A DNA stretch of 64,000 nt, taken from NCBI RefSeq assembly GCF_009931435.1, contig NZ_CP043414.1. The stretch is one strand, 5' to 3'. The notes beneath the pieces were generated by a model. The model was given only the letters and a program-made list of their open reading frames with translations, made no database searches and was not told the DNA's origin. Origin of the DNA: Escherichia coli. GTDB lineage: Bacteria; Pseudomonadota; Gammaproteobacteria; Enterobacterales; Enterobacteriaceae. Shown one piece after another: positions 22,343-48,618 of this stretch; the stretch's first letter is position 1, and each line of letters starts with the position of its first letter. Made by a program: the position numbers and the translations under genes.

Positions 22343-22417
22343 GAATCAATTCCTTCTGCTTTTAATATGGTTCATCTGGCCACTGCACCAGTTCCGTTTT
22401 AATTTTTTGCACCTGAC

Positions 22418-24721: not shown

Positions 24722-24760
24722 ATACAAAAACAGCATCCGGCCTGATAGCCGGATGCTGTT
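24722..24760 (-). terminator. Rho-independent terminator downstream of hcp, before vgrG
   Basis: Perfect inverted repeat cagcatccggc / gccggatgctg; minus strand reads hairpin then TTTTTG. Confidence 0.6.
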
Positions 24761-24768
24761 GGCTTAAC

Positions 24769-26483: not shown

Positions 26484-26517
26484 CCACCACTATTTCATTA
26501 AACAGGGTTATCCAGGC

Positions 26518-26742: not shown

Positions 26743-26792
26743 CGGCGAAAAGCCGGTTTCAGAAACACAGCTAAAACAGAAGGATTTTCAGT

Positions 26793-28268: not shown

Positions 28269-28274
28269 CACACC

Positions 28275-28688
28275 ATGATACCGGATCGGGAAAGAACCAC
28301 AGGTTCTCTTTTTGAGCGTATGGAAGCCTCTTCGGCCAGAAACCGGCAGGGAGGCAGTATTCATTCGCTCAGGCAATCCATTCGCCAGAACCTACGAAAC
28401 ATTCTTAATACCCGGTCCGGTAGTTGCCGGGGTGCGCCTGAGCTGGGCATTGATGAACCGGAAGGGGCTGAAAACTTCCGCGAATCCATGAGTCGGGCCA
28501 TCGAGCAATGTATAGAACGCTATGAACCCCGGATCTCACACGCTGAAGTGCAGGCAGTGGTTTCATCCGCCTCCAGCCCGCTGGATATGACGTTTCATAT
28601 TACAGCCTGGGTGACATTTAACGAAACGCATGAGGTGCTTGAATTTGATATGGCACCGAATGGCAGCCAGCATTACCGGGTGGACTGA
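28275..28688 (+). CDS. tssE: T6SS baseplate protein TssE (gp25-like)
   Basis: 137 aa; gp25/lysozyme-like baseplate wedge family. Confidence 0.85.
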   Translation: MIPDRERTTGSLFERMEASSARNRQGGSIHSLRQSIRQNLRNILNTRSGSCRGAPELGIDEPEGAENFRESMSRAIEQCIERYEPRISHAEVQAVVSSASSPLDMTFHITAWVTFNETHEVLEFDMAPNGSQHYRVD

Positions 28689-28691
28689 CAG

Positions 28692-31588: not shown

Positions 31589-31612
31589 ATTATGATAATC
31601 ACGGAGCAGAAT

Positions 31613-32893
31613 ATGCCGGAAGAGAAACTACAGACGCTTTCATTGCAGGTCATTAACGGCAGTGAGCTGGAAAGCGGGCGGGCGGCGCGCTGTCTGTTCA
31701 CGCAGCAGGGAAATGTCGGCCATGGCCCCGAATGCCACTGGTCGGTACAGGATCGTCAGCAGAGCATTCCGGCTCAGGCCTTTACCGTTATACTGCACGA
31801 TGGCACATTTTGTCTGCGCCCGCAGACGGCACAACTGTGGCTGAACCAGGCAAAAGTCACAGCAACATCAGACCTGATACAGCTGCGCCAGGGCGATGAG
31901 ATCCAGATAGGGCGTCTGATGGTGAGGGTTCATCTGAACCGGGGTGATATCCCCCATTACGATGAGGAAATGGCCACTCCCGAAACCATCGTCACCAATC
32001 GCGATATGCTCACGGATACCCTGCTGTCAACGGAGGGTGCGCCACACTATCCGGGAATGACTCACCGGCATCAGCTTGCTGACACCGTGGTAAACGGTTT
32101 TTCTGCCGATCCACTCCAGGCACTTCAGTCCGAAAGCCTGATTACCGCGGGCGATCCGCTTTCAGGCATTGCGGCTGTCCGGCCATCGGCACCGCTGTCC
32201 GATCCGGCAAGTAATGGGGGGATCAATACGCCGTTTATGGATCTGCCGCCCATTTATGCCAGCCCCGGCGAGCGTAATGATGACGTCTCTGTGGCAGAAA
32301 TGGCGCAACGCCACCTTGCGGTCACCCCCTTACTGCGCGGCCTTGGCGGCTCGCTTACCGTGAGCAATTCCGACGATGCGGATGATTTTCTGGAGGAGGC
32401 CGGACGCACGTTACAGGCCGCAATAAAAGGTCTGCTTGATTTGCAGCAGCAGCGTAACAGCCTCTCAGACAAACATTTGCGCCCGCTGGAAGATAACCCG
32501 CTGCGCCTGAACATGGATTACGCCACCGCGCTCGACGTGATGTTTGCCGAAGGTAAAAGTCCGGTACATCTGGCGGCTCCCGCCGCTGTCAGTGAAAGCC
32601 TGCGCAATGTCCGCCACCACGAAGAAGCTAACCGGGCGGCGATTGTGGAGTCGCTTCGTGTCCTGCTGGACGCCTTCTCACCACAAAATCTGCTGCGCCG
32701 CTTTGTGCAGTACCGCCGCAGCCATGAACTGCGCCAGCCGCTGGATGATGCCGGAGCATGGCAAATGTACAGCCATTATTACGAAGAGCTGGCCTCTGAT
32801 CGCCAGCAGGGGTTTGAGATGCTGTTTAACGAGGTCTACGCCCAGGTCTATGACCGGGTGCTTCGTGAAAAACAGCGGGAGCCGGAAGCATGA
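31613..32893 (+). CDS. tagH: T6SS FHA-domain protein TagH (Fha)
   Basis: ORF 31592..32893; probable start at the ATG at 31613 preceded by GGAG; N-terminal forkhead-associated fold. Confidence 0.8.
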   Translation: MPEEKLQTLSLQVINGSELESGRAARCLFTQQGNVGHGPECHWSVQDRQQSIPAQAFTVILHDGTFCLRPQTAQLWLNQAKVTATSDLIQLRQGDEIQIGRLMVRVHLNRGDIPHYDEEMATPETIVTNRDMLTDTLLSTEGAPHYPGMTHRHQLADTVVNGFSADPLQALQSESLITAGDPLSGIAAVRPSAPLSDPASNGGINTPFMDLPPIYASPGERNDDVSVAEMAQRHLAVTPLLRGLGGSLTVSNSDDADDFLEEAGRTLQAAIKGLLDLQQQRNSLSDKHLRPLEDNPLRLNMDYATALDVMFAEGKSPVHLAAPAAVSESLRNVRHHEEANRAAIVESLRVLLDAFSPQNLLRRFVQYRRSHELRQPLDDAGAWQMYSHYYEELASDRQQGFEMLFNEVYAQVYDRVLREKQREPEA

Positions 32894-33414
32894 ACAGGAA
32901 GGCGTTTCTGGCCTGCGTGCTGATGTGCGTCATATTAACCGGCTGCGAAACGGCGAAAAAAATCAGCGAGGTGATCAAAAACCCGGATATCCAGGTCGGG
33001 AGCCTGAAGGAGCAACCTTCGGAAATAACCGTCACCCTGCTGACTGAACCGGACACTAATACCAATGCGGAGGGTGAATCAGCCGCCGTGGATGTGCAAC
33101 TGGTGTACCTGACGGACGACTCAAAATTGCAGGCAGCCGACTATGACCAGATAGCCAGTACGCCGCTACCGGATGTGCTGGGTAAAAACTATATCGACCA
33201 CCAGGATTTCAACCTGTTGCCGGACACCATCAAAACCCTGCCGCTGGTAAAGCTGGATGAGAAAACGCAGTTTATTGGTGTCGTGGCCTATTTCTCCGAT
33301 GACCAGGCCACGGAATGGAAACAAATCGAGACGGTGGAAGGAACCGGCCACCATTACCGCCTGCTGGTGCATGTACGTCAAAGCAGCATCGAAATGAAAA
33401 AAGAGGATGAATAA
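32890..33414 (+). CDS. tssJ: T6SS outer-membrane lipoprotein TssJ (SciN/VasD)
   Basis: 174 aa; lipobox LTGC; overlaps the tagH stop. Confidence 0.85.
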   Translation: MNRKAFLACVLMCVILTGCETAKKISEVIKNPDIQVGSLKEQPSEITVTLLTEPDTNTNAEGESAAVDVQLVYLTDDSKLQAADYDQIASTPLPDVLGKNYIDHQDFNLLPDTIKTLPLVKLDEKTQFIGVVAYFSDDQATEWKQIETVEGTGHHYRLLVHVRQSSIEMKKEDE

Positions 33415-33416
33415 GT

Positions 33417-34748
33417 ATGGCAACCACCCGCAACAAGGTGATGTGGCAGGAAGGGATGCTGATGCGCCCACACCATTTCCAGCAACAGCAGCGTTACAAC
33501 GACTACCTGGATAACCAGCGTTTCCGGGCCATGAATGATTTATCCTGGGGATTTACCGAACTCACCCTCAACAATGAACTGCTGGCGCAGGGTAAGATCA
33601 TGATTGACAGCGCGTCAGGCACACTGCCCGACGGCACCGTCTTTTCTATCCCCGACCAGGACGCACTGCCCGATCCGCTGCACCCGCAAAATTTTCCGGA
33701 CGAAAGAAGCCGCAATATCTACCTCGCTCTGCCGGTCGCCAGTGATGTGAGAAATGAAATCAGCGACGGGCGGCGAATCGGGCGTTACCGGCTGAATTAT
33801 GCCGATGTCCGGGATTTGCATTCAGAAGAAGGCGACGCGCGAACACTGACGCTGGGACAACTGACGCCGCGCATTATGAGCGGTGCAGAAGATATGAGCG
33901 CCTATATCACGCTCCCGCTTTGCCGTATCAGCGATCGCCATGCCGACGGCTCCCTGACGCTGGATGACGATTTTATCCCCTCCTGCCAGAATATTCAGGT
34001 CAGTAAGAAACTGCGTGTTTATCTCAAAGAGGTACAGGGGGCCATTAGCGGACGGGCAAGCGATCTGGCAAACCGTATTGGCTCTCCGGCGCAGAGCGGC
34101 ATCGCGGATGTGGCGGAATTTATGATGTTGCAGTTGCTTAACCGTAACCAGACCCGGTTTACCCATCGCGCCCGCCGATCCCAGCTCCACCCGGAAGATT
34201 TCTACCTTGATCTTGCCGGGTTGCTGGGTGAACTGATGACCTTTACCGAGCCGTCGCGCCTGCCCTGCCCGCTTGATGTGTATGATCATCATGACCTGAC
34301 CAAAACATTTAAAACACTGTTACCGGAAGTCAAACGGGCGCTGCATACCGTACTGTCGCCAAGAGCCGTCAATCTGCCGCTGCATCTGCGTGACGGTATC
34401 TGGCAGGCCGATATCCATGACTCGGAACTGCTGCAATCTGCCACCTTTGTGCTGGCCGTGGCGGCAAATATGCCGGTCGATCAGATCCAGCGCCAGTTTA
34501 TCCAGCAGTCGAAAATTTCCTCGCCGGAAAAAATCCGCAATATGGTCAGTGTGCAGATCCCCGGCATTCCATTGCGTGCCCTGATGGTGGCTCCCCGTCA
34601 GCTTCCCTACCATTCCGGGTTCAGCTATTTCGAACTCGACAAGAGCGGACAGTCCTGGACAGAAATGGCTGCCGCCGGGGGCGTTGCGCTGCATGTATCC
34701 GGCAGTTTCCCGGATCTGAACATGCAACTGTGGGCGATAAGAGGGTAA
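33417..34748 (+). CDS. tssK: T6SS baseplate protein TssK (VasE)
   Basis: 443 aa; N-terminal VMWQEGMLMRPHHFQQQQRY typical of TssK. Confidence 0.9.
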   Translation: MATTRNKVMWQEGMLMRPHHFQQQQRYNDYLDNQRFRAMNDLSWGFTELTLNNELLAQGKIMIDSASGTLPDGTVFSIPDQDALPDPLHPQNFPDERSRNIYLALPVASDVRNEISDGRRIGRYRLNYADVRDLHSEEGDARTLTLGQLTPRIMSGAEDMSAYITLPLCRISDRHADGSLTLDDDFIPSCQNIQVSKKLRVYLKEVQGAISGRASDLANRIGSPAQSGIADVAEFMMLQLLNRNQTRFTHRARRSQLHPEDFYLDLAGLLGELMTFTEPSRLPCPLDVYDHHDLTKTFKTLLPEVKRALHTVLSPRAVNLPLHLRDGIWQADIHDSELLQSATFVLAVAANMPVDQIQRQFIQQSKISSPEKIRNMVSVQIPGIPLRALMVAPRQLPYHSGFSYFELDKSGQSWTEMAAAGGVALHVSGSFPDLNMQLWAIRG

Positions 34749-34752
34749 GACG

Positions 34753-35514
34753 ATGGATGAGGGGTCACTGTCTCTGCCACCATTTACCGGATACGACGAA
34801 AAAAGCCAGCGCGACTATCATCTCGCGCTTCGTGGCAACAGCCTGAATCCGATGATCGACGCAGCCACGCCACTCCTCGGTATGGTGATGCGCCTTTCAA
34901 CCATGAACAGCCAGACGATGCCGGAGCATCTTTTTGCACAGGTGGTGACGGATGTTCAGGCCGTGGAGCAACTGCTTCAGGAGCAGGGCTACGAACCGGG
35001 CGTGATTATCTCGTTTCGCTACATCCTCTGCACATTTATTGATGAAGCGGCGCTCGGTAACGGCTGGTCGAACAAGAACGAGTGGATCAAACAGTCATTG
35101 CTGGTCCATTTCCACAACGAAGCCTGGGGTGGCGAGAAAGTTTTCATCCTGCTGGAGCGCCTGATCCGTGAACCCAAACGTTACCAGGATCTGCTGGAAT
35201 TTCTCTGGCTCTGTTTTTCTCTGGGATTTCGCGGGCGCTACAAAGTGGCAGCACAGGATCAGGGGGAATTTGAGCAGATCTACCGCCGCCTGTACCACGT
35301 TCTGCATAAACTGCGCGGCGATGCCCCTTTCCCGCTGTTACACCAGGACAAAAAAACCCAGGGCGGGCGTTATCAGCTCATCAGTCGCCTGACCATTAAA
35401 CATATTTTTTGTGGTGGCGTTGTCGTGCTGGCGTTGTTTTACCTGTTCTATCTGTTGCGGCTGGACAGCCAGACGCAGGACATCCTGCACCAGCTAAACA
35501 AATTACTTCGATAA
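34753..35514 (+). CDS. tssL: T6SS membrane protein TssL (DotU family), short form without a peptidoglycan-binding extension
   Basis: 253 aa; DotU-like cytoplasmic domain with a single C-terminal transmembrane helix. Confidence 0.85.
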   Translation: MDEGSLSLPPFTGYDEKSQRDYHLALRGNSLNPMIDAATPLLGMVMRLSTMNSQTMPEHLFAQVVTDVQAVEQLLQEQGYEPGVIISFRYILCTFIDEAALGNGWSNKNEWIKQSLLVHFHNEAWGGEKVFILLERLIREPKRYQDLLEFLWLCFSLGFRGRYKVAAQDQGEFEQIYRRLYHVLHKLRGDAPFPLLHQDKKTQGGRYQLISRLTIKHIFCGGVVVLALFYLFYLLRLDSQTQDILHQLNKLLR

Positions 35515-35522
35515 GGACGTTT

Positions 35523-38282
35523 ATGATCCAGATTGATCTTCCCACGCTGGTAAAACGGCTTAACCTGTTCTCCCGCCAGGCGCTGGAGATGGCCGCCTCT
35601 GAATGTATGAGCCAGCAGGCAGCGGAAATTACCGTCAGCCATGTGCTTATTCAGATGCTCGCCATGCCACGCAGTGACCTGCGGGTTATTACCCGCCAGG
35701 GCGATATTGGCATGGAAGAGTTGCGCCAGGCGCTGACGGTGGAGAACTACACAACCGCCCGTTCTGCGGACAGCTACCCGGCGTTTTCCCCGATGCTGGT
35801 TGAGTGGCTGAAAGAGGGCTGGCTGCTGGCGTCGGCTGAGATGCAGCACAGCGAACTGCGCGGCGGCGTGTTGCTGCTGGCCCTGCTGCATTCGCCGCTG
35901 CGTTATATACCGTCTGCTGCCGCCCGGCTGTTGACCGGCATTAACCGTGACCGTCTGCAACAGGACTTTGTGCAGTGGACACAGGAGTCGACGGAATCAG
36001 TCGTGCCGGATGCAGACGGTAAAGGCGCAGGCACACTGACGGATGCTGCTGACACCCAGCTTGCCCGCTACGCCAAAAACATGACCGAAGATGCCCGTAA
36101 CGGCAGGCTTGACCCGGTACTGTGCCGCGACCACGAAATCGACCTGATGATCGACATTCTCTGCCGCCGCCGTAAAAATAACCCGGTGGTGGTGGGCGAA
36201 GCAGGCGTGGGTAAAAGCGCGCTGATTGAAGGGCTGGCGCTGCGCATCGTGGCAGGCCAGGTGCCGGACAAACTGAAAAACACCGATATCATGACCCTTG
36301 ACCTGGGCGCATTGCAGGCCGGGGCATCGGTGAAGGGCGAGTTTGAAAAACGCTTCAAGGGGCTGATGGCGGAGGTCATTTCCTCCCCGGTGCCAGTCAT
36401 TCTGTTTATCGACGAAGCGCATACCCTGATTGGGGCGGGCAACCAGCAGGGCGGGCTGGATATCTCCAACCTGCTCAAACCGGCGCTGGCGCGCGGCGAG
36501 CTGAAAACCATCGCCGCCACCACCTGGAGCGAGTACAAAAAATACTTCGAGAAAGACGCTGCCCTGTCGCGCCGCTTCCAGTTGGTGAAGGTCAGCGAAC
36601 CCAACGCCGCCGAAGCCACCATTATTCTGCGTGGTCTGTCGGCGGTCTATGAACAGTCTCACGGCGTACTGATTGATGATGACGCCTTGCAGGCCGCTGC
36701 GACATTAAGTGAGCGTTATCTCTCCGGGCGTCAGTTGCCGGACAAAGCGATTGATGTGCTGGATACGGCCTGCGCCCGCGTGGCAATCAACCTGTCATCG
36801 CCACCAAAGCAAATCTCAGCGCTGACCACCCTGAGCCACCAGCAGGAGGCGGAAATTCGCCAGCTTGAGCGCGAGCTTCGCATCGGGCTGCGTACCGACA
36901 CCTCGCGGATGACGGAGGTGCTGGTGCAGTATGATGAAACGCTGACGGCGCTGGACGAACTGGAAGCCGCCTGGCATCAGCAACAGACGCTGGTACAGGA
37001 AATTATCGCGCTGCGCCAGCAGTTGCTGGGTATGGCAGAAGACGATGCGGCGTCGTTGCCGGACGCAGATGCCGTGGGGGATATGCCGTCGGAGTCAGAG
37101 CAGGATAATACCGGTGCCGCACCGGCTGATGAAGCTGGCAGCGCACAGCCGGAAGAAACCGCTGAAACAGTTTCCCCGGTACAACGGCTGGCACAGCTTA
37201 CTGCCGAACTGGACGCCCTGCATAACGACCGGTTGCTGGTCTCCCCGCACGTCGATAAAAAACAGATTGCGGCGGTGATTGCCGAATGGACCGGCGTGCC
37301 GCTTAACCGCCTGTCGCAGAATGAAATGTCGGTCATCACCGACCTGCCAGTATGGCTGGGCGACACCATCAAAGGCCAGGACCTGGCGATTGCCAGCCTG
37401 CATAAACATCTGCTGACCGCACGCGCCGACCTGCGCCGTCCGGGACGCCCGCTTGGCGCGTTCCTGCTGGCTGGCCCCAGCGGCGTGGGTAAAACCGAAA
37501 CCGTCCTGCAACTGGCAGAGCTTCTCTACGGTGGTCGCCAGTACCTGACCACCATCAATATGTCCGAGTTCCAGGAGAAGCACACCGTCTCGCGGCTGAT
37601 TGGTTCCCCTCCGGGCTATGTCGGCTATGGTGAAGGCGGCGTGCTGACCGAAGCCATCCGCCAGAAACCCTACTCAGTGGTGCTCCTCGATGAAGTGGAA
37701 AAAGCGCACCCGGATGTGCTCAACCTGTTCTACCAGGCGTTTGACAAGGGCGAGATGGCAGACGGCGAAGGCCGCCTGATTGACTGTAAAAACATCGTCT
37801 TCTTCCTCACCTCCAACCTTGGCTACCAGGTGATTGTCGAACACGCCGATGACCCGGAGACCATGCAGGAAGCCCTCTATCCGATGCTGGCGGACTTCTT
37901 TAAACCTGCCCTGTTGGCGCGTATGGAAGTGGTGCCGTACCTGCCTCTGTCGAAAGAGACGCTCGCCACCATTATTGCCGGGAAACTCACCCGTCTGGAT
38001 AACGTGCTGCGCAGTCGCTTTGGTGCGGAAGTGATTATTGAGCCGGAAGTGACGGACGAAATTATGAGCCGCGTCACCCGAGCGGAAAACGGCGCAAGGA
38101 TGCTCGAATCAGTCATCGACGGCAACATGCTGCCGCCGCTCTCGCTGCTGCTGTTGCAGAAGATGGCAGCCAACACGGCGATTGCCCGGATTCGTCTGTC
38201 GGCGGCAGACGGTGCATTCACAGCAGACGTGGAAGATGCTCAGGACGACGAGTCCGTCACAGAGGATGAAACGGTTTTATGA
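35523..38282 (+). CDS. clpV: T6SS AAA+ ATPase ClpV (TssH)
   Basis: ORF 35409..38282 trimmed to the ATG at 35523 (MIQIDLPTLVKRLN...); two Walker A motifs (GEAGVGKSA, GPSGVGKTE); Clp N-domain. Confidence 0.95.
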   Translation: MIQIDLPTLVKRLNLFSRQALEMAASECMSQQAAEITVSHVLIQMLAMPRSDLRVITRQGDIGMEELRQALTVENYTTARSADSYPAFSPMLVEWLKEGWLLASAEMQHSELRGGVLLLALLHSPLRYIPSAAARLLTGINRDRLQQDFVQWTQESTESVVPDADGKGAGTLTDAADTQLARYAKNMTEDARNGRLDPVLCRDHEIDLMIDILCRRRKNNPVVVGEAGVGKSALIEGLALRIVAGQVPDKLKNTDIMTLDLGALQAGASVKGEFEKRFKGLMAEVISSPVPVILFIDEAHTLIGAGNQQGGLDISNLLKPALARGELKTIAATTWSEYKKYFEKDAALSRRFQLVKVSEPNAAEATIILRGLSAVYEQSHGVLIDDDALQAAATLSERYLSGRQLPDKAIDVLDTACARVAINLSSPPKQISALTTLSHQQEAEIRQLERELRIGLRTDTSRMTEVLVQYDETLTALDELEAAWHQQQTLVQEIIALRQQLLGMAEDDAASLPDADAVGDMPSESEQDNTGAAPADEAGSAQPEETAETVSPVQRLAQLTAELDALHNDRLLVSPHVDKKQIAAVIAEWTGVPLNRLSQNEMSVITDLPVWLGDTIKGQDLAIASLHKHLLTARADLRRPGRPLGAFLLAGPSGVGKTETVLQLAELLYGGRQYLTTINMSEFQEKHTVSRLIGSPPGYVGYGEGGVLTEAIRQKPYSVVLLDEVEKAHPDVLNLFYQAFDKGEMADGEGRLIDCKNIVFFLTSNLGYQVIVEHADDPETMQEALYPMLADFFKPALLARMEVVPYLPLSKETLATIIAGKLTRLDNVLRSRFGAEVIIEPEVTDEIMSRVTRAENGARMLESVIDGNMLPPLSLLLLQKMAANTAIARIRLSAADGAFTADVEDAQDDESVTEDETVL

Positions 38283-39022
38283 GCAGGTTGCGCGTTTTCC
38301 GGCAGACAGGATGGTTTATCGCGGGCCTGATGGCGGGCTTACCCGCCAGTGCCGCGCCCGCAGAAACATCGTCAGTGGCCGGTGTGGCGGTAGCTGTCGC
38401 CACAGCGACACCGCCGGATGCGACAGCCACGTTACAGGCCATGCGGTCCTGTCGCCAGGAGACGGCGGCGCTGGAGCGGCTTGACTGCTATGACCGCCTG
38501 CTGGCACCCCTTTCTCCGTCAGGGTTTGACGGGGCGCTGGTCAAAGCCGGTTTTGTGGGCGAGGCCTGGACCCGCGCCACAGAGCAGGAAAAACGCCGCC
38601 AGGGCAACACCACAGAGCTGCTGGTGACGCAGGTGCCGGGAGAACGCCCGACGGTGGTGGTAACCACCCCGGCTATCGGCCATGTTCCGCCTCGCCCGGT
38701 GCTGATGTTCAGCTGTGTGGACAATATCACCCGGATGCAGGTGGCGCTGGTGCACCCTCTGGATGTCCATGATATCGCCGTCACCCTGAATGCCGACAGC
38801 CGGGTATTGCGCAGCCACTGGTTTGTGCGCGAGAACGGCACCCTGCTGGAGTCCAGCCGGGGGCTGTCCGGGATTGATGAAATTAAGCAACTGTTCGGCG
38901 CAAAAACGCTGACGGTGGATACCGGCGCAGATAACGCCGCCGGAAAGCTGACCTTTAACATTGACGGGCTAGCAAGGGCGATTGCCCCCCTGCGCGATGC
39001 CTGCCACTGGGCGGGAGAATAA
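38279..39022 (+). CDS. T6SS-associated secreted protein (VasI-like)
   Basis: 247 aa with signal peptide; sits between clpV and tssA as VasI does in vas-type clusters. Confidence 0.55.
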   Translation: MSRLRVFRQTGWFIAGLMAGLPASAAPAETSSVAGVAVAVATATPPDATATLQAMRSCRQETAALERLDCYDRLLAPLSPSGFDGALVKAGFVGEAWTRATEQEKRRQGNTTELLVTQVPGERPTVVVTTPAIGHVPPRPVLMFSCVDNITRMQVALVHPLDVHDIAVTLNADSRVLRSHWFVRENGTLLESSRGLSGIDEIKQLFGAKTLTVDTGADNAAGKLTFNIDGLARAIAPLRDACHWAGE

Positions 39023-39026
39023 AAAT

Positions 39027-40442
39027 ATGGCAATGGACTTACGCGATCCGAATGTCTGGATATCGCACCTGCTGGAAAACCTGCCGGAAGAGAAACTGGC
39101 ATCGGCGCTGAAAGATGACAACCCGGACTGGGAGTATATCGACGGCGAAATCGTCAAACTGGGTTCACTGGCCCACAGCCAACTGGATATCCCGGAACTC
39201 CAGCGCCGGGGGCTGGTCATTCTGGCTTCGGAGAGTAAGGATTTTCGTCTGCTGGCACACCTGCTCAGAACCCTGCAACATGCCGGTGATCCACTGCTGG
39301 CACTGCGCCTGCTGGCGCTATACGTGGAACATTACTGGACTGTGGCCGCGCCGCAGAATATGGCGCATAAAAAACGCTTTGCCAGCCAGATCATTAAACG
39401 TTTTGAAACGGGTATTGAAGGCTTTTCACAGAACGCCGCCACCGCGCAGCGCGATGCACTATTAGGTGAACTGGCGAAACTGGCGCAGTGCTGGCAGTCA
39501 CATAACGCCCCGGAACTGGCAGAGGCTACTGATGATCTTTTTGCCCTGTACCAGCGTGCGTTTAATCGTGCGGCACCGGCTCCTGCCCACACTCCGGCGG
39601 CCTCCGGTAGTTCACCACAGACCACCGCCACGTCTGAAAGCGGCGTGACGCAAACCAGTGCTCCGGCTCCACAGATCGCCATCGACAGTCACGACGACAA
39701 AGCCTGGCGCGACACGCTGTTAAAAGTGGCGGCCATTTTATGTGAACGCCAGCCGGACTCGCCGCAGGGCTATCGCCTGCGCCGCCATGCCCTGTGGCAA
39801 TCCATCACCAGTACGCCCCAGGCGGAAAGCGATGGACGCCCCCCACTGGCTGCGGTCTCCGCCGATATGGTGGCAGATTACCATGCTCAGCTCGGTAGTG
39901 CCGATATGGCGCTGTGGCAGCAGGTGGAAAAAAGCGTACTGCTGGCACCCTACTGGCTGGACGGTCACTGCATTTCTGCACAGACGGCGCACCGTCTTGG
40001 CTATACCGCCGTGGCCGATGCCATCCGCGATGAAGTCGTTTCCTTTCTTGGCCGTCTGCCCGCGCTCGCTGATCTTCTGTTTAACGACCACACACCGTTT
40101 GTTTCTGAAAAAACGAAGCAATGGCTTGCAACTCAGCCAGGTAACCAGGCCGCGCCAGTCATACAGGTGAGTAATGAAGATATTCAGGCTGCGCGGTTGT
40201 GTTTTGATGAACAGGGGCTGGAAGCCGCCTTACGGTATCTGGATACGTTGCCCGCCGGTGAACCCCGCGACCAGTTTCACCGGCAGTATTTTGGCGCGCA
40301 GCTTATGGAAGAGGCGGGGCTGGTACAGCTTGCGCAGCAGCAGTACCGGATGTTGTTCAGGATGGGATTGCAGATGATGGTGGCAGACTGGGAGCCGTCC
40401 CTGCTTGAGCAGCTAGAACAAAAATTCACGGCAGAACAATAA
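39027..40442 (+). CDS. tssA: T6SS protein TssA (ImpA N-terminal domain; VasJ-like)
   Basis: ORF 38982..40442 trimmed to the ATG at 39027 (MAMDLRDPNVWISHL...); ImpA_N-type N-terminus. Confidence 0.85.
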   Translation: MAMDLRDPNVWISHLLENLPEEKLASALKDDNPDWEYIDGEIVKLGSLAHSQLDIPELQRRGLVILASESKDFRLLAHLLRTLQHAGDPLLALRLLALYVEHYWTVAAPQNMAHKKRFASQIIKRFETGIEGFSQNAATAQRDALLGELAKLAQCWQSHNAPELAEATDDLFALYQRAFNRAAPAPAHTPAASGSSPQTTATSESGVTQTSAPAPQIAIDSHDDKAWRDTLLKVAAILCERQPDSPQGYRLRRHALWQSITSTPQAESDGRPPLAAVSADMVADYHAQLGSADMALWQQVEKSVLLAPYWLDGHCISAQTAHRLGYTAVADAIRDEVVSFLGRLPALADLLFNDHTPFVSEKTKQWLATQPGNQAAPVIQVSNEDIQAARLCFDEQGLEAALRYLDTLPAGEPRDQFHRQYFGAQLMEEAGLVQLAQQQYRMLFRMGLQMMVADWEPSLLEQLEQKFTAEQ

Positions 40443-40460
40443 AAGAGAACAGGAGTTTTT

Positions 40461-43400
40461 GTGTTCAGATTACCAACACCCCGACTATTCAGCGGACTCA
40501 AATCAGCCCTGCGCCCGGCGATGCCCCGGTTTAAAGTTTCTGCATTCTGGCTGCTGATACTGGCGTGGATTTTCCTGCTGGTATGGATCTGGTGGAAAGG
40601 CCCGGCATGGACGCTGGATGAAGAGCAGTGGCTCAAACCACTGGCGAACCGCTGGCTGGCAACGGCGGCGTGGGGGATTATTGCCCTGGTGTGGCTTACC
40701 GTCCGGGTAATGAAGCGCCTGCAACAGCTTGAAAAAATGCAAAAGCAACAGCGCGAGGAAGCCGTTGATCCGCTCAGTGTGGAACTGAACGCCCAGCAGC
40801 GTTACCTCGACCGCTGGCTGCTGCGCCTGCAACGCCATCTCGACAACCGCCGTTTCCTGTGGCAGTTGCCGTGGTATATGGTCATCGGTCCTGTGGGCAG
40901 TGGCAAAACGACACTGCTGCGCGAGGGGTTTCCGTCAGACATTATTTATGCCCCGGAGGGCGCGCACGGCGCAGAACAACGCCTGTACCTCACGCCCCAT
41001 GTCGGTAAACAGGCGGTGATCTTTGATATCGACGGCACACTCTGCGCTCCCGCTGATGCGGATATCCTGCATCGCCGTCTGTGGGAACATGCCCTCGGCT
41101 GGCTGAAGGAAAAGCGCGCGCGCCAGCCGCTGAACGGGATTATTCTGACACTCGATTTACCCGATCTGCTGACCGCAGACAAACGCCGCCGCGAGCATCT
41201 GTTACAGACGCTGCGCAGCCGCTTACAGGATATACGCCAGCATCTTCATTGCCAGTTACCGGTTTACGTGGTACTGACCCGGCTTGATTTATTGCAGGGT
41301 TTTGCCGCCCTGTTTCAGTCACTGAACAGACAGGATCGCGATGCGATTCTGGGTGTTACGTTCACCCGCCGTGCTCATGAAAATGATGACTGGCGAACAG
41401 AGTTGAATGCTTTCTGGCAGACATGGGCGGATCGAATGAATCTGGCGTTGCCGGATCTGATGGTCACCCAGACTCACACCCGCGCGTCTTTATTTAGTTT
41501 TTCCCGCCAGATGCAGGGAAGCCGTGAACCGCTGATATCACTGCTGGAGGGTCTGCTTGACGGCGAAAATATGAACGTGATGCTGCGTGGTGTCTATCTC
41601 ACCTCTTCGCTTCAGCGTGGACAGATGGATGATATATTCACCCAGTCTGCTGCCCGCCAGTACCGACTGGGCAATAACCCACTGGCGTCCTGGCCTCTGG
41701 TGGACACCGCGCCTTATTTCACCCGCAGCCTGTTCCCGCAGGCATTACTCGCAGAGCCTAATCTGGCAACAGAGAGCCGCGCCTGGCTGATGCGTTCCCG
41801 TCGCCGCCTGACGGTTTTCTCTGCCACAGGCGGCGTGGCGGCACTGCTGCTCATCACCGGCTGGAATCACTATTACAACGGTAACTATCAGTCCGGCATC
41901 ACCGTGCTTAAGCAGGCCAAAGCCTTTATGGACGTGCCGCCTCCGCAGGGGGAAGATGACTTTGGTAACCTACAACTGCCGCTGCTGAACCCGGTACGCG
42001 ATGCCACACTGGCCTATGGCGACTGGGGTGACCGCAGCCGCCTGGCCGATATGGGACTGTACCAGGGGCGACGTATCGGGCCTTATGTGGAACAGACCTA
42101 TCTGCAACTGCTGGAGCAGCGTTACCTGCCCTCGCTGTTTAACGGGCTGGTCAAAGCGATGAACGCCGCACCGCCGGAGAGTGAGGAAAAACTCGCGGTG
42201 CTGCGCGTGATGCGAATGCTGGAGGACAAAAGCGGACGCAACAATGAGGTGGTGAAGCAGTATATGGCAAAACGCTGGAGCGAAAAGTTCCACGGACAGC
42301 GCGATATCCAGACACAACTGATGTCCCATCTTGACTACGCGCTGGCTCATACTGACTGGCATGCAGAGCGTCAGGCGGGCGACGGTGATGCCATCAGCCG
42401 CTGGACGCCATATGACAAGCCTGTTGCGACAGCACAGAAAGAACTGAGCAAACTGCCTGTCTACCAGCGGGTTTACCAGAGCCTGAAAACGCGGGCGCTG
42501 GGCGTTCTTCCTGCTGACCTCAATCTGCGTGACCAGGTAGGGCCAACCTTTGACCAGGTGTTTACATCTGCCGATGATAACAAACTGGTTGTTCCACAGT
42601 TTCTTACCCGTTACGGCCTGCAAAGCTATTTTGTAAAACAGCGCGATGAACTGGTTGAACTGACGGCGATGGATTCCTGGGTACTCAACCTCACCCGCAG
42701 CGTGAAATACAGTGACGCCGACCGCGCGGAAATTCAGCGCCAGTTGACCGAGCAGTATATCAGCGACTACACCGCCACCTGGCGGGCCGGGATGGACAAT
42801 CTCAATATCCGCAATTTTGAGTCCATTGGACAACTGACTGGCACTCTGGAGCAGGTTATCAGCGGCGACCAGCCTTTGCAGCGGGCGCTGACCGTGCTGC
42901 GTGACAACACACAGCCAGGCGTCTTTTCTGAAAAACTCTCTGCCAAAGAGCGGGATGAGGCCCTGGCAGAGCCGGATTACCAGTTACTCACCCGCCTCGG
43001 GCATGAATTCGCCCCGGAAAACAGTACCCTGACAGTACAGAAAGACAAAGAAAGCACGATGCAGGCCGTATACCAGCAGCTCACCGAGTTACACCGCTAC
43101 CTGCTGGCAATCCAGAACGCGCCTGTACCAGGGAGATCGGCGCTGAAAGCCGTGCAGTTAAGGCTTGATCAGAACTGCAGCGATCCAATATTCGCCACCC
43201 GCCAGATGGCAAAAACACTGCCTGCTCCGCTCAACCGCTGGGTAGGCAGGCTGGCTGACCAGGCCTGGCATGTGGTGATGGTGGAAGCCGTTCACTATAT
43301 GGAAGTGGACTGGCGCGACAGCGTGGTGAAACCGTTTAACGAGCAACTGGCAAATAACTATCCGTTTAATCCACGTTCTGCACAGGATGCCTCACTGGAT

Positions 43401-43985
43401 GCCTTCGAACGATTCTTTAAACCGGATGGCGTACTGGATACCTTCTACCAGCAGAACCTGAAACTGTTTATCGACAATGATCTGAGCCTGGAAGACGGCG
43501 ATAACAGCGTCATTATCCGCGAAGATATTATTGCGCAACTGGAAACCGCGCAGAAAATCCGTGACATCTTCTTCAGCAAACAGAACGGTCTGGGAACATC
43601 CTTTGCCGTGGAAACGGTATCGCTTTCCGGCAACAAACGCCGCAGCGTACTGAACCTTGACGGCCAGTTAGTCGATTACAGCCAGGGCCGTAACTATACC
43701 GCCCATCTGGTCTGGCCTAACAATATGCGCGAAGGCAACGAAAGCAAACTGACGCTGGTTGGTGCCAGCGGCGGCGCACCGCGCAGTATCAGCTTCAGCG
43801 GGCCGTGGGCGCAGTTCCGCCTGTTCGGGGCCGGACAACTGACCGGAGTACAGGATGGCAACTTTACCGTGCGCTTTAGCGTGGACGGTGGCGCGATGAC
43901 CTACCGTGTGCATACCGACACCGAGGATAACCCGTTCAGCGGTGGGTTGTTCAGCCAGTTTGGTCTGTCAGACACACTGTACTGA
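40461..43985 (+). CDS. tssM: T6SS membrane core protein TssM (IcmF)
   Basis: 1174 aa; GTG start with AGGAG upstream; N-terminal transmembrane helices, Walker A GPVGSGKTT, IcmF-like periplasmic domain. Confidence 0.95.
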   Translation: MFRLPTPRLFSGLKSALRPAMPRFKVSAFWLLILAWIFLLVWIWWKGPAWTLDEEQWLKPLANRWLATAAWGIIALVWLTVRVMKRLQQLEKMQKQQREEAVDPLSVELNAQQRYLDRWLLRLQRHLDNRRFLWQLPWYMVIGPVGSGKTTLLREGFPSDIIYAPEGAHGAEQRLYLTPHVGKQAVIFDIDGTLCAPADADILHRRLWEHALGWLKEKRARQPLNGIILTLDLPDLLTADKRRREHLLQTLRSRLQDIRQHLHCQLPVYVVLTRLDLLQGFAALFQSLNRQDRDAILGVTFTRRAHENDDWRTELNAFWQTWADRMNLALPDLMVTQTHTRASLFSFSRQMQGSREPLISLLEGLLDGENMNVMLRGVYLTSSLQRGQMDDIFTQSAARQYRLGNNPLASWPLVDTAPYFTRSLFPQALLAEPNLATESRAWLMRSRRRLTVFSATGGVAALLLITGWNHYYNGNYQSGITVLKQAKAFMDVPPPQGEDDFGNLQLPLLNPVRDATLAYGDWGDRSRLADMGLYQGRRIGPYVEQTYLQLLEQRYLPSLFNGLVKAMNAAPPESEEKLAVLRVMRMLEDKSGRNNEVVKQYMAKRWSEKFHGQRDIQTQLMSHLDYALAHTDWHAERQAGDGDAISRWTPYDKPVATAQKELSKLPVYQRVYQSLKTRALGVLPADLNLRDQVGPTFDQVFTSADDNKLVVPQFLTRYGLQSYFVKQRDELVELTAMDSWVLNLTRSVKYSDADRAEIQRQLTEQYISDYTATWRAGMDNLNIRNFESIGQLTGTLEQVISGDQPLQRALTVLRDNTQPGVFSEKLSAKERDEALAEPDYQLLTRLGHEFAPENSTLTVQKDKESTMQAVYQQLTELHRYLLAIQNAPVPGRSALKAVQLRLDQNCSDPIFATRQMAKTLPAPLNRWVGRLADQAWHVVMVEAVHYMEVDWRDSVVKPFNEQLANNYPFNPRSAQDASLDAFERFFKPDGVLDTFYQQNLKLFIDNDLSLEDGDNSVIIREDIIAQLETAQKIRDIFFSKQNGLGTSFAVETVSLSGNKRRSVLNLDGQLVDYSQGRNYTAHLVWPNNMREGNESKLTLVGASGGAPRSISFSGPWAQFRLFGAGQLTGVQDGNFTVRFSVDGGAMTYRVHTDTEDNPFSGGLFSQFGLSDTLY

Positions 43986-43995
43986 GGAGGCAGGG

Positions 43996-45348
43996 ATGAA
44001 TAGTAACGTACTGACACAAACTATCGTTACCGGCAGTGACCCGCGCGGGCTGCCGGAATTCAGCGCCATCCGCGAGGAAATAAACAAAGCCAGCCACCCG
44101 TCACAGCCTGAGCTGAACTGGAAACTGGTGGAGTCGCTGGCGCTGGCGATTTTTAAAGCTAACGGTGTGGATTTACACACCGCCACCTACTATACGCTTG
44201 CACGGACACGGACACAGGGACTGGCGGGCTTTTGCGAAGGTGCGGAACTGCTGGCGGCAATGGTAAGCCACGACTGGGATAAGTTCTGGCCGCAGGGCGG
44301 CCCGGCGCGTACTGAAATGCTGGACTGGTTTAACTCCCGAACCGGCAATATTCTGCGTCAGCAAATCTCCTTTGCGGAATCCGACCTACCACTGATCTAC
44401 CGCACGGAGCGGGCATTGCAGCTTATCTGCGACAAACTCCAGCAGGTAGAGCTGAAGCGCGTTCCGCGCGTGGAGAATCTGCTCTATTTTATGCAGAACA
44501 CGCGTAAACGGCTTGAACCCCAGCCGAAGAGTAACGCCGAGAACACCTCACAGACCACGGTCAGAACGCTGATTTATGCACCGGAAACAATGGCTTCCTC
44601 CACGCCAGAAGCAGTAGTGCCTCCCCTGCCCGACCTGCCCGAGATGAAAGTGGAAGTGCGCAGTCTGTCAGAAAATCCCCCACAGGCCAGTGTGATGAAG
44701 CAAGGCAGTACGGTAAGAGGGTTTATCGCAGGGATCGTCTGTTCAGTGGCTGTCGCCTCAGCATTGTGGTGGTGGCAGGTCTATCCGGTGCAGCAGCAAC
44801 TGTTACAGGTTAACGACACCGCGCAGGGCGCAGCAACGGTGTGGATGGCCTCACCTGAACTCGAAAACTATGAGCGCAGGTTGCAACAGCTTCTTGGCGT
44901 CTCCCCGGTACAACCGCTGGAAACCGGAATGCAGATGATGCGTGTTGCCGACAGTCGCTGGCCGGAAAGCCTGCAACAGCAACAGGCCTCGACACAATGG
45001 AATGAGGCACTCAAAACCCGCGCACAGAGTAGCCCGCAGTTGCGTGGCTGGTTGCAGACCCGCCAGGACTTACATGCTTTTGCAGATCTCGTGATGCAGC
45101 GCGAGAAAGAGGGACTAACCCTTTCCTATATCAAAAATGTCATCTGGCAGGCGGAGCGGGGACTGGGGCAGGAAACACCCCTGGAATCCCTGCTGACGCA
45201 GTACCAGGATGCCCGTGCACAGAAGCAGAATACAGATGCGCTGGAAAAACAAATTAATGAGCGACTCGAAGGCGTGTTAAGCCGCTGGCTGCTGCTGAAG
45301 AATAACGTCATGGCAGAGGCGGCAACCGGGACCACGACCGGAAAATAA
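43996..45348 (+). CDS. TssA-like ImpA_N-domain membrane protein (VasL-like accessory)
   Basis: ORF 43906..45348 trimmed to the ATG at 43996 (MNSNVLTQTIV...); ImpA_N-like N-terminus, central transmembrane helix FIAGIVCSVAVASALWWW, coiled-coil-like C-terminus. Confidence 0.65.
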   Translation: MNSNVLTQTIVTGSDPRGLPEFSAIREEINKASHPSQPELNWKLVESLALAIFKANGVDLHTATYYTLARTRTQGLAGFCEGAELLAAMVSHDWDKFWPQGGPARTEMLDWFNSRTGNILRQQISFAESDLPLIYRTERALQLICDKLQQVELKRVPRVENLLYFMQNTRKRLEPQPKSNAENTSQTTVRTLIYAPETMASSTPEAVVPPLPDLPEMKVEVRSLSENPPQASVMKQGSTVRGFIAGIVCSVAVASALWWWQVYPVQQQLLQVNDTAQGAATVWMASPELENYERRLQQLLGVSPVQPLETGMQMMRVADSRWPESLQQQQASTQWNEALKTRAQSSPQLRGWLQTRQDLHAFADLVMQREKEGLTLSYIKNVIWQAERGLGQETPLESLLTQYQDARAQKQNTDALEKQINERLEGVLSRWLLLKNNVMAEAATGTTTGK

Positions 45349-45371: not shown

Positions 45372-45854
45372 ATGGCAAATATGAGTTATTTATCTTTAAG
45401 TGGGGAGACACAAGGGCTGATTTCAGCGGGTTGCTCAACGCTTGACTCTGTCGGAAACAAAGCGCAGTTAGAGCATAAAGATCAGATCATGGTTTATGCG
45501 CTAATGCACTCCATCTCAAGAAGTCAGAATGTCAATCATCATGAACTGGTCATCACCAAGCCTGTTGATAAATCCTCACCGTTGCTGGCAAAAGCACTTA
45601 GTGACAATGAAAAAATGACAGCGTGTGAATTTATACTCTACCGAACCAGTAAAGAGGGCATTAACCAGCCTTACTATAAAATAAATCTGTCAAAAGCCAG
45701 GATATCAAGTATTGATTTTGTCACACCTCATGCTGTTCTGGAAAAAGAACTGGAGCCACAGGAGAGAATTGCCTTTATTTATGAAGATATTTCCTGGGAG
45801 CATACGTTAGCCAGGACGAATGCAATGAGTAAATGGCAGGATCGTGTACAGTAA
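45372..45854 (+). CDS. hcp: T6SS tube protein Hcp, copy 2 (divergent paralog)
   Basis: 160 aa Hcp-family protein; AT-rich; followed by candidate effector and immunity genes. Confidence 0.85.
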   Translation: MANMSYLSLSGETQGLISAGCSTLDSVGNKAQLEHKDQIMVYALMHSISRSQNVNHHELVITKPVDKSSPLLAKALSDNEKMTACEFILYRTSKEGINQPYYKINLSKARISSIDFVTPHAVLEKELEPQERIAFIYEDISWEHTLARTNAMSKWQDRVQ

Positions 45855-45896
45855 CATACTGCAATAACATAATAACTTACTATTACGGAGAGATAA

Positions 45897-46811
45897 ATGG
45901 CTGGTTTAAGGAATAATAACAACACACAGAATGCACAGTGGGCTGATTATGTGGGTGACATTCTTCGGGGGTCTCAGCCGATAAACCAGCTAGTACCTCA
46001 GCACCCTTATCTTAACGACATCCCACTCATTGATGAGTTAAGGCGTCAGAACACTCATCATGTTATTCTTTTGACATTTGATGTTGCAAAAAAAATACTC
46101 AACCCAATAACATCATTTGATTACATTCATTTTATCACTACACATCCTTCAGGTATAAAAGATACACTAGCCTGGTTAGTTAACGCGGGTAAATTAATGA
46201 CTGAGTTTGATGAAAATGGGAAAATTATATTTAACCTTAATACCTTAAAGTATACAAAAGCAAGTTACTTTGAAATACTTGGAGAGAAATATATAAAAAT
46301 CACAACATCCAGCCCCTGGCTTTTAGAAAAGCTCGGTAAATATATTTTCTCTTCACGAGCGCCTCAAGTTCTGGAGCTCGCTATTGGCTGGCGAGGAGCT
46401 TTATCTGAATCAATAAAAGGAGTTAAGTTCTGTATCTGGTTTTCAGTAGCCTGGAGAACCATAGAATTTATTATGAGTTCAGAGCGAGATCTGGTTAATT
46501 TTCTTGGTGATTTTTCAATGGATGTGGCCAAAGCAGTGATTGCAGGCGGTGTTGCAACCGCTATTGGAAGCCTGGCTTCTTTTGCCTGTCTTAGTTTTGG
46601 CCTTCCAGTAATTCTTGTAGGAGGAGCAATTTTACTTACAGGGATAGTGTGTACAGTTGTTTTAAATGAAATCGATGCTCAATACCATTTATCAGAAAAA
46701 TTAAAAGATGCAATTAGAGATGGACTAAAACAGCAACAGGAACTTGATAAATGGAAAAGGGAAAACATGACTCCATTTATGTATGTTCTTAACACCCCCC
46801 CCGTGATATGA
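45897..46811 (+). CDS. Candidate T6SS effector with C-terminal glycine-rich transmembrane hairpin (possible membrane-disrupting toxin)
   Basis: 304 aa, AT-rich; C-terminal AVIAGGVATAIGSLASFACLSFGLPVILVGGAILLTGIVCTVVL; directly downstream of hcp2 and upstream of a small polytopic membrane protein. Confidence 0.45.
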   Translation: MAGLRNNNNTQNAQWADYVGDILRGSQPINQLVPQHPYLNDIPLIDELRRQNTHHVILLTFDVAKKILNPITSFDYIHFITTHPSGIKDTLAWLVNAGKLMTEFDENGKIIFNLNTLKYTKASYFEILGEKYIKITTSSPWLLEKLGKYIFSSRAPQVLELAIGWRGALSESIKGVKFCIWFSVAWRTIEFIMSSERDLVNFLGDFSMDVAKAVIAGGVATAIGSLASFACLSFGLPVILVGGAILLTGIVCTVVLNEIDAQYHLSEKLKDAIRDGLKQQQELDKWKRENMTPFMYVLNTPPVI

Positions 46812-46820
46812 GGATTAACT

Positions 46821-47288
46821 ATGTGTTTACATGTTAAATTGAAAGAGTTTCTTTCGATGTTTTTTATAGCCATGTTATTTTTCCCTGCATTCAATGCTTC
46901 TTTGTTTTTTACCGGAATTAAACCTCTATACTCAATAATAAAAGGCTCCACGGAAATATTTTATGATTGGAGAATGTTGATTCTATTCTTCGGTTTCATA
47001 TCGTTTTCCTTGTTAAATATTCATGTAATTTTACTAACGATAATAAAATCATTCTTAATAAAAAAAACAAAGGTAATCAATTTCGCCACAAACATAACAA
47101 TACAGCTAACTCTTATATTTTTACTAATAGCTATCGTAATAGCACCTTTAATAGCTCCTTTTGTCACAGGATATGTCAATGCTAATTATCACCTCTGCGG
47201 TAATAACACGGGGATTTTCCCAGGAGCAATCTATATTAAAAATGGCATGGAATGTAATAATGATTATATTTCTCACAAGGAAGATTAA
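46821..47288 (+). CDS. Candidate immunity protein: small polytopic inner-membrane protein
   Basis: 155 aa with about four hydrophobic helices; AT-rich; 10 nt after the candidate effector. Confidence 0.4.
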   Translation: MCLHVKLKEFLSMFFIAMLFFPAFNASLFFTGIKPLYSIIKGSTEIFYDWRMLILFFGFISFSLLNIHVILLTIIKSFLIKKTKVINFATNITIQLTLIFLLIAIVIAPLIAPFVTGYVNANYHLCGNNTGIFPGAIYIKNGMECNNDYISHKED

Positions 47289-48541: not shown

Positions 48542-48618
48542 TGGCGGAACGGACGGGACTCGAACCCGCGACCCCCTGCGTGACAGGCAGGTATTCTAAC
48601 CGACTGAACTACCGCTCC
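48542..48618 (-). tRNA. aspV: tRNA-Asp (GUC)
   Basis: Reverse complement matches the 77 nt E. coli tRNA-Asp sequence. Confidence 0.97.

Follow-up and report, generated by a model that had tools for sequence, protein, structure and literature searches.

What do the three AT-rich genes at the far end of a T6SS cluster in Escherichia coli encode, and do they amount to a toxin with its own immunity partner? For the window analysed, a stretch of 64,000 nucleotides, a preliminary description had proposed that a second, divergent hcp is followed there by a membrane-depolarising T6SS toxin and a polytopic membrane immunity protein. The three open reading frames are present in the ORF listing, all on the + strand: hcp at 45372..45854 (160 aa), a 304-aa ORF at 45897..46811 and a 155-aa ORF at 46821..47288, separated by gaps of 42 nt and 9 nt, respectively. 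Their GC contents (41.2%, 38.0% and 29.7%, as opposed to 56–57% in tssM and tagA) bear out the AT-richness relative to the core genes. A scan of positions 45000–48600 for promoters and terminators gave nothing beyond shuffled expectation, with zero terminators.

The placement at the far end of the cluster also stands: the island is complete, and the three genes occupy its aspV end. The T6SS core operon (tssB, tssC, tssF, tssK, clpV, vasI, tssA, tssM and tagA/vasL; 25983..45348, + strand) ends just before them. NCBIfam equivalogs above cutoff identify TssB, TssC, TssF, TssK, TssH, VasI, TssA and TssM, and the TagA/VasL call follows the RefSeq annotation of a near-identical genome. A divergent arm on the − strand (11951..25287) carries the main 172-aa hcp (24769–25287), vgrG and genes for two RHS core proteins, with matches to TIGR03344, TIGR03361 and NF041261; its products are other effectors of the same T6SS machine. 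Beyond the 155-aa ORF, yafT (47430–48215, − strand; RefSeq annotation) precedes the tRNA-Asp gene aspV (48542..48618, − strand; ARAGORN and RefSeq annotation), the right-hand island boundary.

Database identity answers most of the question. The 304-aa protein matches WP_032183276.1, and the 155-aa protein WP_032183275.1, each with 100% identity. Judged by these exact accessions, the identity of the two proteins as a Tme/Tmi pair is already known (Fridman et al., 2020; PMC7046647). Because both accessions are listed in that family table, the earlier suggestion of an uncharacterised effector family fails, and the hcp-tme-tmi cassette is not a new kind of system. In the available portion of Supplementary Data 5, WP_032183276.1 appears as a Tme row (domain 122–277, E 5.28e-38), with WP_032183275.1 given downstream as a 155-aa, 3-TM protein after a 9 nt gap and an Hcp 42 nt upstream. 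Membership of the Tme profile is the authors’ own table score for the identical accession, obtained with a PSSM built from Tme1 residues 161–310 and applied at E ≤ 1e-8 over at least 80 aa (Fridman et al., 2020).

In Vibrio parahaemolyticus, the T6SS delivers Tme1 and Tme2, which are toxic from the periplasm; they dissipate the membrane potential and allow propidium iodide to enter, the cells are not lysed, and each is neutralised only by its cognate Tmi (Fridman et al., 2020). Tme1/Tmi1 corresponds to VPBB_RS15030-35 (WP_015297525.1) of V. parahaemolyticus BB22OP, and Tme2/Tmi2 to strain T9109. These effectors share with the E. coli protein a C-terminal DxxK-TM-D domain, the absence of a signal peptide, T6SS linkage and a multi-TM DUF1240-like gene immediately 3′. 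The E. coli subfamily differs from them in its own N-terminal region and in the dedicated hcp in front. VasX of V. cholerae, Tse4 of P. aeruginosa, Ssp6 of Serratia and colicin-type pore formers are likewise periplasm-acting inner-membrane depolarisers with membrane immunity proteins, and the read-outs for VasX are the same as those for Tme1 and Tme2 (Fridman et al., 2020). The 304-aa protein showed no sequence-family or fold similarity to the pore-forming domains of the colicin, VasX, Tse4 or Ssp6 type.

Within Tme (34 kDa; RefSeq ‘hypothetical protein’), the family domain spans residues 122–277 (46260..46727, + strand) by the bounds given in the available part of the published table. Profile matches of distant relatives fall on this same stretch, with identities to the E. 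coli protein of about 15–25%; the profile search retrieved 702 representatives at E ≤ 1e-3. The family is characterised by a nearly invariant DxxK, a predicted TM helix and a flanking Asp (Fridman et al., 2020), and the same series is found here: D209-V-A-K212 (46521..46532, + strand), the hydrophobic segment 213–256 (46533..46664, + strand) and then D260 (46674..46676, + strand). Among 127 aligned relatives, D209 is conserved in 91%, K212 in 97% and D260 in 97%; D209 and K212 are both invariant in a 10-sequence alignment. The 304-aa protein has no match in Pfam or NCBIfam, as the preliminary description had led one to suspect.

Residues 213–256 form a glycine-rich, hydrophobic helical hairpin that is presumed to be the membrane-inserting element. 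Such a segment had been described beforehand as the C-terminus; its glycine-rich, hydrophobic character was borne out, but a 48-residue polar tail follows it. Kyte-Doolittle hydropathy has maxima of 1.88 and 2.71, and the first hairpin helix contains five overlapping small-xxx-small motifs (213–228). With a 10-sequence alignment, AF2 gave an unusable model (pLDDT 44); with 127 sequences, pLDDT rose to 75, with 85–95 over residues 170–300, which are modelled as four long helices, and low confidence in the N-terminal half. The hydrophobic segment is predicted as two helices, 199–234 and 238–263, broken at P237. The two-helix hairpin rests on hydropathy and AF2, because Phobius, as given in the available portion of the published table, places a single TM helix at 234–256. 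None of the solved structures compared with the AF2 model resembles it.

The N-terminus carries a motif conserved in one subfamily, WxxYxGDxLRGx4NQLxPxH (W15–Y38; 45939..46010, + strand), which occurs in 27 of 166 relatives among the matches listed. Residues 1–45 are 76–89% identical to those of three relatives, in which identity over the rest of the protein is only 22–33%. A profile built on the first 51 residues retrieved only short fragments and zero fusions to other toxins. The idea that this motif is an Hcp-loading signal was weakened, because the motif-less relatives P0023 and P0042 adjoin the same Hcp subtype; linkage to Hcp thus does not depend on the motif.

The 155-aa product of tmi (RefSeq ykfM), hereafter YkfM, is predicted to be a 3-TM, DUF1240-like inner-membrane immunity protein. 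About four membrane helices had been counted in the preliminary description; hydropathy gives three hydrophobic stretches, and Phobius also gives three (i12-33 o53-75 i96-115 o in the available portion of the published table). The Pfam DUF1240 HMM (PF06836) did not match YkfM even at E ≤ 10, nor did any other Pfam or NCBIfam family. However, hhalign of YkfM against DUF1240 gave a probability of 99.9% (E 6.6e-34), the PF06836 protein downstream of a Salmonella Tme homologue is 49% identical to YkfM (E 2e-44), and the homologue P0177, 69% identical, carries PF06836 on record. Tmi proteins were assigned by a link to the DUF1240 node or HHpred above 95%, a position no more than 50 bp downstream of tme, and 3–6 TM helices (Fridman et al., 2020); YkfM combines DUF1240-like homology with the 9-nt gap and three hydrophobic stretches. 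Its conserved C-terminal tail, GYVNxxYHxCx4GIFx4YxKNGxxC (47166..47258, + strand), is predicted to be periplasmic, since the Phobius topology in the portion of the table available ends in ‘o’. C126 and C145 of this tail are invariant in alignment A3, as are their counterparts in a Salmonella/Rahnella DUF1240 alignment (A4). We infer that these cysteines may form a disulfide and that the tail may take part in toxin binding.

Relatives at other loci show what kind of module this is. In nine other loci, the gene downstream of the tme relative is DUF1240, often in several copies. Longer relatives carry PAAR (6 of 15) or DUF4280 (1 of 15), and on the strength of these fusions the Tme domain is a T6SS toxin module. 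The competing view, in which the 304-aa protein is no toxin but serves the T6SS as a structural or accessory membrane component of the TssA/TagA type, is most improbable. It draws on the UniProt name ‘ImpA domain-containing protein’ attached to several Salmonella, Photorhabdus and Superficieibacter homologues, on the position of tme two genes after tagA (ImpA_N plus VasL) and on rare ImpA-Tme fusions (Fridman et al., 2020). Yet the ImpA_N Pfam model (PF06812) matches neither the query nor any of ten family members (0/10), so that the ImpA reading of the UniProt names was rejected; moreover, the pair is found in orphan modules remote from any T6SS core genes, and a DUF1240 gene always follows, often in the multiple copies expected of immunity arrays.

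With the Tme/Tmi reading retained, the role of the adjacent Hcp can be considered. The 160-aa protein is a genuine Hcp (TIGR03344, E 5e-61, 205.4 bits, cutoff 58.9) and belongs to a short-loop subtype that accompanies Tme/Tmi pairs. As had been claimed, it is divergent: it is only 28–29% identical to the island’s main Hcp, compared with 47–75% to the Hcps beside Tme/DUF1240 pairs at six other loci, all of which are 159–160 aa long and lack a 9-residue loop insert. Flanks were readable at 10 of the 11 loci inspected, and a 159–160-aa Hcp adjoins the pair in seven of them; five of these seven lie outside any T6SS cluster, as orphan modules. The relative P0035 could be placed on no contig. The available portion of Supplementary Data 5 holds at least 1,254 mentions of E. 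coli, of which at least 1,250 have an Hcp upstream. From this gene linkage, Hcp-dependence of Tme is plausible.

Classical cargo of the Hcp lumen is under about 20 kDa. Delivery of Tme by a non-Hcp route is therefore possible, because at 34 kDa it exceeds such cargo and three close relatives with a DUF1240 gene have no hcp nearby. An unlikely alternative along these lines keeps the Tme/Tmi pair but lets Tme ride the VgrG/PAAR spike or another adaptor, the 160-aa Hcp being a second tube subunit or host-directed. The fusion of many Tme relatives to PAAR or DUF4280 would suit this route, and papers on ‘Hcp2a’ regard such an Hcp as acting on host cells. The recurrence of the 159–160-aa Hcp beside the pairs, orphan modules included, and its low identity to the main Hcp argue for a dedicated partner instead, and the cassette itself contains no gene for a PAAR, MIX or adaptor protein.

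Thus, we consider it highly probable that the locus is an hcp-tme-tmi cassette belonging to the T6SS of the aspV island in E. coli, in which Hcp-loaded Tme would depolarise prey from the periplasm and YkfM would protect the producer. This assignment builds on the exact match of both proteins to catalogued members, the DxxK motif, gene linkage and the homology of the immunity protein. It agrees with the toxin and immunity functions originally proposed, on the grounds of Tme/Tmi homology and gene context. The 160-aa Hcp, as a dedicated carrier or chaperone subtype, would load Tme into the tube, and firing of the T6SS would place it in the prey periplasm. There, the C-terminal helical domain, with its DxxK, glycine-rich hairpin and conserved Asp, would insert into the inner membrane. 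By extension from the Tme1 and Tme2 experiments, from which periplasmic toxicity, depolarisation and specific immunity are carried over, insertion would collapse the membrane potential and make the membrane leaky without cell lysis. YkfM, the putative cognate DUF1240-like Tmi with three TM helices and a two-cysteine tail in the periplasm, would protect sister cells.

A cluster of matching layout has been studied in pathogenic strains. Hcp2A, a type IIa Hcp of ExPEC/APEC T6SS2, is encoded at the same spot, by the last gene of the vipA2...hcp2A operon, and a divergent hcp2B-vgrG2 arm lies opposite, as in the island described here (Ma et al., 2018; PMC5874247). Judged by gene layout, the 160-aa Hcp probably corresponds to the ‘Hcp2A’ described for T6SS2 of E. 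coli, in papers that regard it as a virulence protein directed at the host and are silent on the two genes that follow. The APEC account of ‘Hcp2B/XmtU’ concerns the other arm, hcp2B-vgrG2, and was set aside for hcp-tme-tmi (Ma et al., 2018). APEC T6SS2 is repressed by H-NS, with similar results cited for EHEC EDL933 (Ma et al., 2018), which agrees with the AT-richness of the cassette. Since the cassette is AT-rich and the layout-matched cluster is H-NS-repressed, the cassette may rarely be expressed. Literature searches covering ykfM, yafU, DUF1240 and Tme in E. coli yielded no experimental work on this pair.

The same genes survive in part in K-12. The pseudogene yafU matches residues 187–304 of E. 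coli Tme at 96% identity, i.e., the last 118 codons only, and the 155-aa ORF and K-12 ykfM are one and the same gene, with proteins about 90% identical. In K-12, however, an ISAs1-linked deletion has removed the T6SS and hcp together with the first 186 tme codons. By this comparison, K-12 yafU is a 3′ remnant of tme, whose full-length form is the 304-aa ORF, and ykfM has been kept in K-12 as an orphan immunity gene. That both proteins are instead ordinary inner-membrane proteins of the producer (‘YafU’ and ‘YkfM’), with a T6SS-independent housekeeping or stress role, seems very improbable. UniProt does call relatives ‘Inner membrane protein yafU’, ykfM persists in T6SS-less K-12, and a K-12 ykfM::Tn5 mutant is killed more readily by nalidixic acid, mitomycin C and peroxide (PMC2824699). 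Against such a role stand the truncated state of K-12 yafU, the strong AT-richness and tRNA-island position, the PAAR-fused relatives, the hcp flanks at unrelated loci and the lack of the pair in about 45% of complete E. coli genomes.

As for the Tme/Tmi cassette itself, it is full-length in 2,545 of 5,426 complete E. coli genomes. Being present in about half of them, it is therefore probably one of the most widespread antibacterial weapons in E. coli. Annotation would gain if the 304-aa ORF (now ‘hypothetical protein’ in RefSeq), ykfM (now ‘protein YkfM’) and K-12 yafU were named Tme, Tmi and tme remnant, respectively. The cassette also provides a tractable model in E. coli for studying how Tme is loaded, by Hcp or spike, and how DUF1240 proteins block it. 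A more tentative proposal, which we hold to be possible though doubtful, is that hcp-tme-tmi is a self-contained mobile cassette in which the short-loop Hcp chaperones the 34-kDa Tme, that it can be plugged into any host T6SS and that orphan ykfM protects. If so, an Hcp chaperoning a hairpin protein larger than classical cargo would represent an unusual loading mode. Roughly 8% of complete E. coli genomes keep ykfM without tme, as K-12 does, and would, on this proposal, be using orphan immunity against Tme-armed kin.

At the end of a complete type VI secretion system (T6SS) island, three open reading frames lie on the plus strand: an hcp gene encoding a 160-residue protein (Hcp160; 45372-45854), a 304-aa ORF (45897-46811) and a 155-aa ORF (46821-47288), separated by 42 and 9 nt, respectively. 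All three were found at exactly the coordinates claimed for them in the preliminary description. Hcp160 was recognized as Hcp/TssD by TIGR03344 (205 bits, cutoff 58.9). The AT-richness attributed to the cassette was also borne out, with GC contents of 41% (hcp), 38% (304-aa ORF) and 30% (155-aa ORF) vs. 56-57% in tssM and tagA. Other features required adjustment: the glycine-rich hydrophobic segment placed at the C-terminus of the 304-aa protein is present (residues 213-256), but a polar 48-residue tail follows it, and the 155-aa protein is indeed hydrophobic, but with three hydrophobic stretches rather than about four membrane helices. No Pfam or NCBIfam model matched the 304-aa or the 155-aa protein.

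Gene context in relatives was decisive for identification of the pair. A word-indexed search with the 304-aa protein returned a narrow set of relatives from E. coli, Salmonella (63% identity) and Rahnella (39%), together with a few metagenomic sequences. In Salmonella, the order VasL-hcp-homologue is conserved, followed by a DUF1240 (PF06836) gene and, beyond it, a second DUF1240 copy; in Rahnella, the homologue occupies an unrelated site, where a DUF1240 gene again follows it and an orphan hcp adjoins. A literature search on DUF1240 yielded a sole match, the study that defined the toxin family Tme and its immunity proteins Tmi, the latter being DUF1240 or DUF1240-like (Fridman et al., 2020; PMC7046647). 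The 304-aa protein has the same sequence as WP_032183276.1, and the 155-aa protein the same as WP_032183275.1 (100% identity in both cases). In Supplementary Data 5 of that study, WP_032183276.1 (304 aa) is listed with Tme at residues 122-277 (E 5.28e-38), the 160-aa Hcp WP_032183277.1 42 nt upstream and WP_032183275.1 (155 aa, three TM helices) 9 nt downstream; the same file contains at least 1,254 mentions of E. coli and at least 1,250 of an upstream Hcp (PMC7046647). Given the identical accessions and the many E. coli rows, the cassette has already been catalogued many times over. Thus, the hcp-tme-tmi arrangement is confirmed but, as a listed Tme/Tmi family member, already known; the suggestion of an uncharacterised effector family was wrong, while the reading as a membrane-disrupting toxin with a membrane immunity partner was essentially right (PMC7046647).

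The 155-aa protein corresponds to YkfM. It shares 49% identity with a Salmonella DUF1240 protein (E 2e-44; profile-profile probability 99.9%), and a relative at 69% identity carries PF06836 on record. Because the Pfam DUF1240 HMM does not match YkfM despite this homology, YkfM is DUF1240-like in the sense of PMC7046647. Its C-terminal tail, GYVNxxYHxCx4GIFx4YxKNGxxC, is kept with two cysteines from E. coli to Rahnella and is predicted to be periplasmic by the published Phobius topology (PMC7046647).

For Tme1 and Tme2, antibacterial activity was shown to be T6SS-dependent (PMC7046647). Periplasmic expression was toxic, whereas in the cytoplasm Tme1 was not toxic and Tme2 much less so, and rescue was afforded solely by the cognate Tmi. 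Membrane potential was lost and PI entered, comparable to VasX, without lysis (PMC7046647). By family membership, the E. coli 304-aa protein most likely acts in the same way. The Tme hairpin would insert from the periplasmic face, and the periplasmic tail of YkfM may intercept it.

Sequence comparison further elaborates the Tme domain. An exhaustive profile search retrieved 702 representative relatives (E<=1e-3); among 127 aligned relatives, G129, G164, G175, D209, K212 and D260 are nearly invariant, giving the order DxxK, hydrophobic helices, Asp. An AF2 model built from this 127-sequence alignment (pLDDT 75 overall, 85-95 at residues 170-300) contains four long helices in the latter region: 165-193; 199-234, with DxxK and a hydrophobic segment rich in small-xxx-small motifs; 238-263, the most hydrophobic; and 265-290, charged and amphipathic. 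Six of 15 longer relatives bear an N-terminal PAAR motif and one DUF4280, a pattern that marks Tme as a polymorphic T6SS toxin domain. The N-terminal head (residues 1-45; 45897-46031) is 76-89% identical in three metagenomic relatives, vs. only 22-33% over the remainder, which suggests modular exchange, with the toxin part recombinationally swapped behind the head. Short ORFs (40-87 aa) encoding this head alone occur in many Enterobacterales genomes.

Ten loci were inspected in addition to the window; ten of the resulting eleven have readable flanks. A DUF1240 gene lies 3' of tme at nine of the ten non-window loci; the tenth contig stops right after tme and is uninformative on this point. At locus L012, the gene downstream of tme has no Pfam hit. 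At L002 (8926-11010), L008 (4860-6140), L011 (4957-5775) and L015 (4873-5983), tme is followed by two or three consecutive DUF1240 genes; these resemble arrays of immunity genes and are probably orphan immunities directed at other Tme alleles.

An Hcp adjoins tme at seven of the ten readable loci (window 45372-45854, L002, L003, L008, L012, L014 and L015), and five of these seven are orphan modules outside T6SS clusters. The linked Hcps are all 159-160 aa, show 47-75% identity to Hcp160 and to one another, have a conserved SAGCS cysteine in common, and lack a 9-residue loop insert present in the main 172-aa Hcp of the island, which is only 28-29% identical to them. Hcps beside Tme/DUF1240 pairs thus form, by their sequences, a 159-160-aa subtype of their own. 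This linked subtype lends good comparative support to a model in which Hcp160 would carry Tme; linkage to Hcp does not need the Tme N-terminal motif. Counter-indications to carriage are the size of Tme (34 kDa), three relatives without hcp nearby and the use of PAAR by many Tme family members.

The island passes NCBIfam cutoffs for TssB, TssC, TssF, TssK, ClpV, VasI, TssA and TssM, and a TagA/VasL gene immediately precedes hcp. Its divergent arm encodes the second Hcp (172 aa), VgrG and two tandem RHS core proteins (1,423 and 1,418 aa; 11951-22342, minus strand). Both the C-terminal tips of the RHS proteins (about 160 aa) and the small ORFs downstream of them (148 aa, 17628-18074; 134 aa, 11547-11951) have a low GC content and no NCBIfam match; a PstS-like ORF (344 aa, 16331-17365) lies between both RHS units. 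This layout equals that of the H-NS-repressed ExPEC/APEC 'T6SS2', in which vipA2...hcp2A stands opposite hcp2B-vgrG2 (PMC5874247); on layout, not sequence, Hcp160 is therefore probably 'Hcp2A'. The window is E. coli chromosomal DNA. Its 2.15-kb cassette region is 99.7% identical to that of strain 2020CK-00188 and occurs in 3,089 of the 5,426 complete genomes of the species, 2,545 of which carry it in its full length. The tssM gene, intact in the window (40461-43985, 1,174 aa), is annotated as frameshifted in 2020CK-00188 (L001 1-2686), otherwise 99.7% identical.

On the left, the island is flanked by yafV (9122-9901) and an intact ISAs1-family transposase gene (10030-11103, minus strand), and on the right by yafT, tRNA-Asp aspV and dnaQ. 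In K-12 MG1655, the order is yafV, an ISAs1 fragment, the last 118 tme codons, ykfM, yafT and aspV, and the yafU-ykfM region (L010 2725-3846) matches window positions 46455-47288. The pseudogene yafU corresponds to Tme residues 187-304 (96% identity) joined to an ISAs1 transposase fragment, and ykfM is intact. This locus order and the tme remnant indicate that K-12 lost the T6SS through an ISAs1-into-tme deletion and kept the immunity gene. Of the 5,426 complete genomes, 2,997 contain ykfM and 2,574 the 5' half of tme, so that some 420 have kept ykfM but not this half of tme; in these, ykfM looks like an orphan T6SS immunity gene. Phenotypes for ykfM come from a Tn5 hyperlethality screen (PMC2824699) and a TraDIS 'essential' call; in our literature search, neither ykfM nor yafU had been connected with T6SS. 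The intact ISAs1 of the window is the same element as the fragment at the K-12 deletion junction. The lipoprotein gene yafT (47430-48215, minus strand; 261 aa, GC 42%) lies between tmi and aspV in Salmonella too, where its counterpart is Pfam YafT on record; RefSeq names for it vary among 'aminopeptidase', 'lipoprotein' and 'hypothetical protein'.
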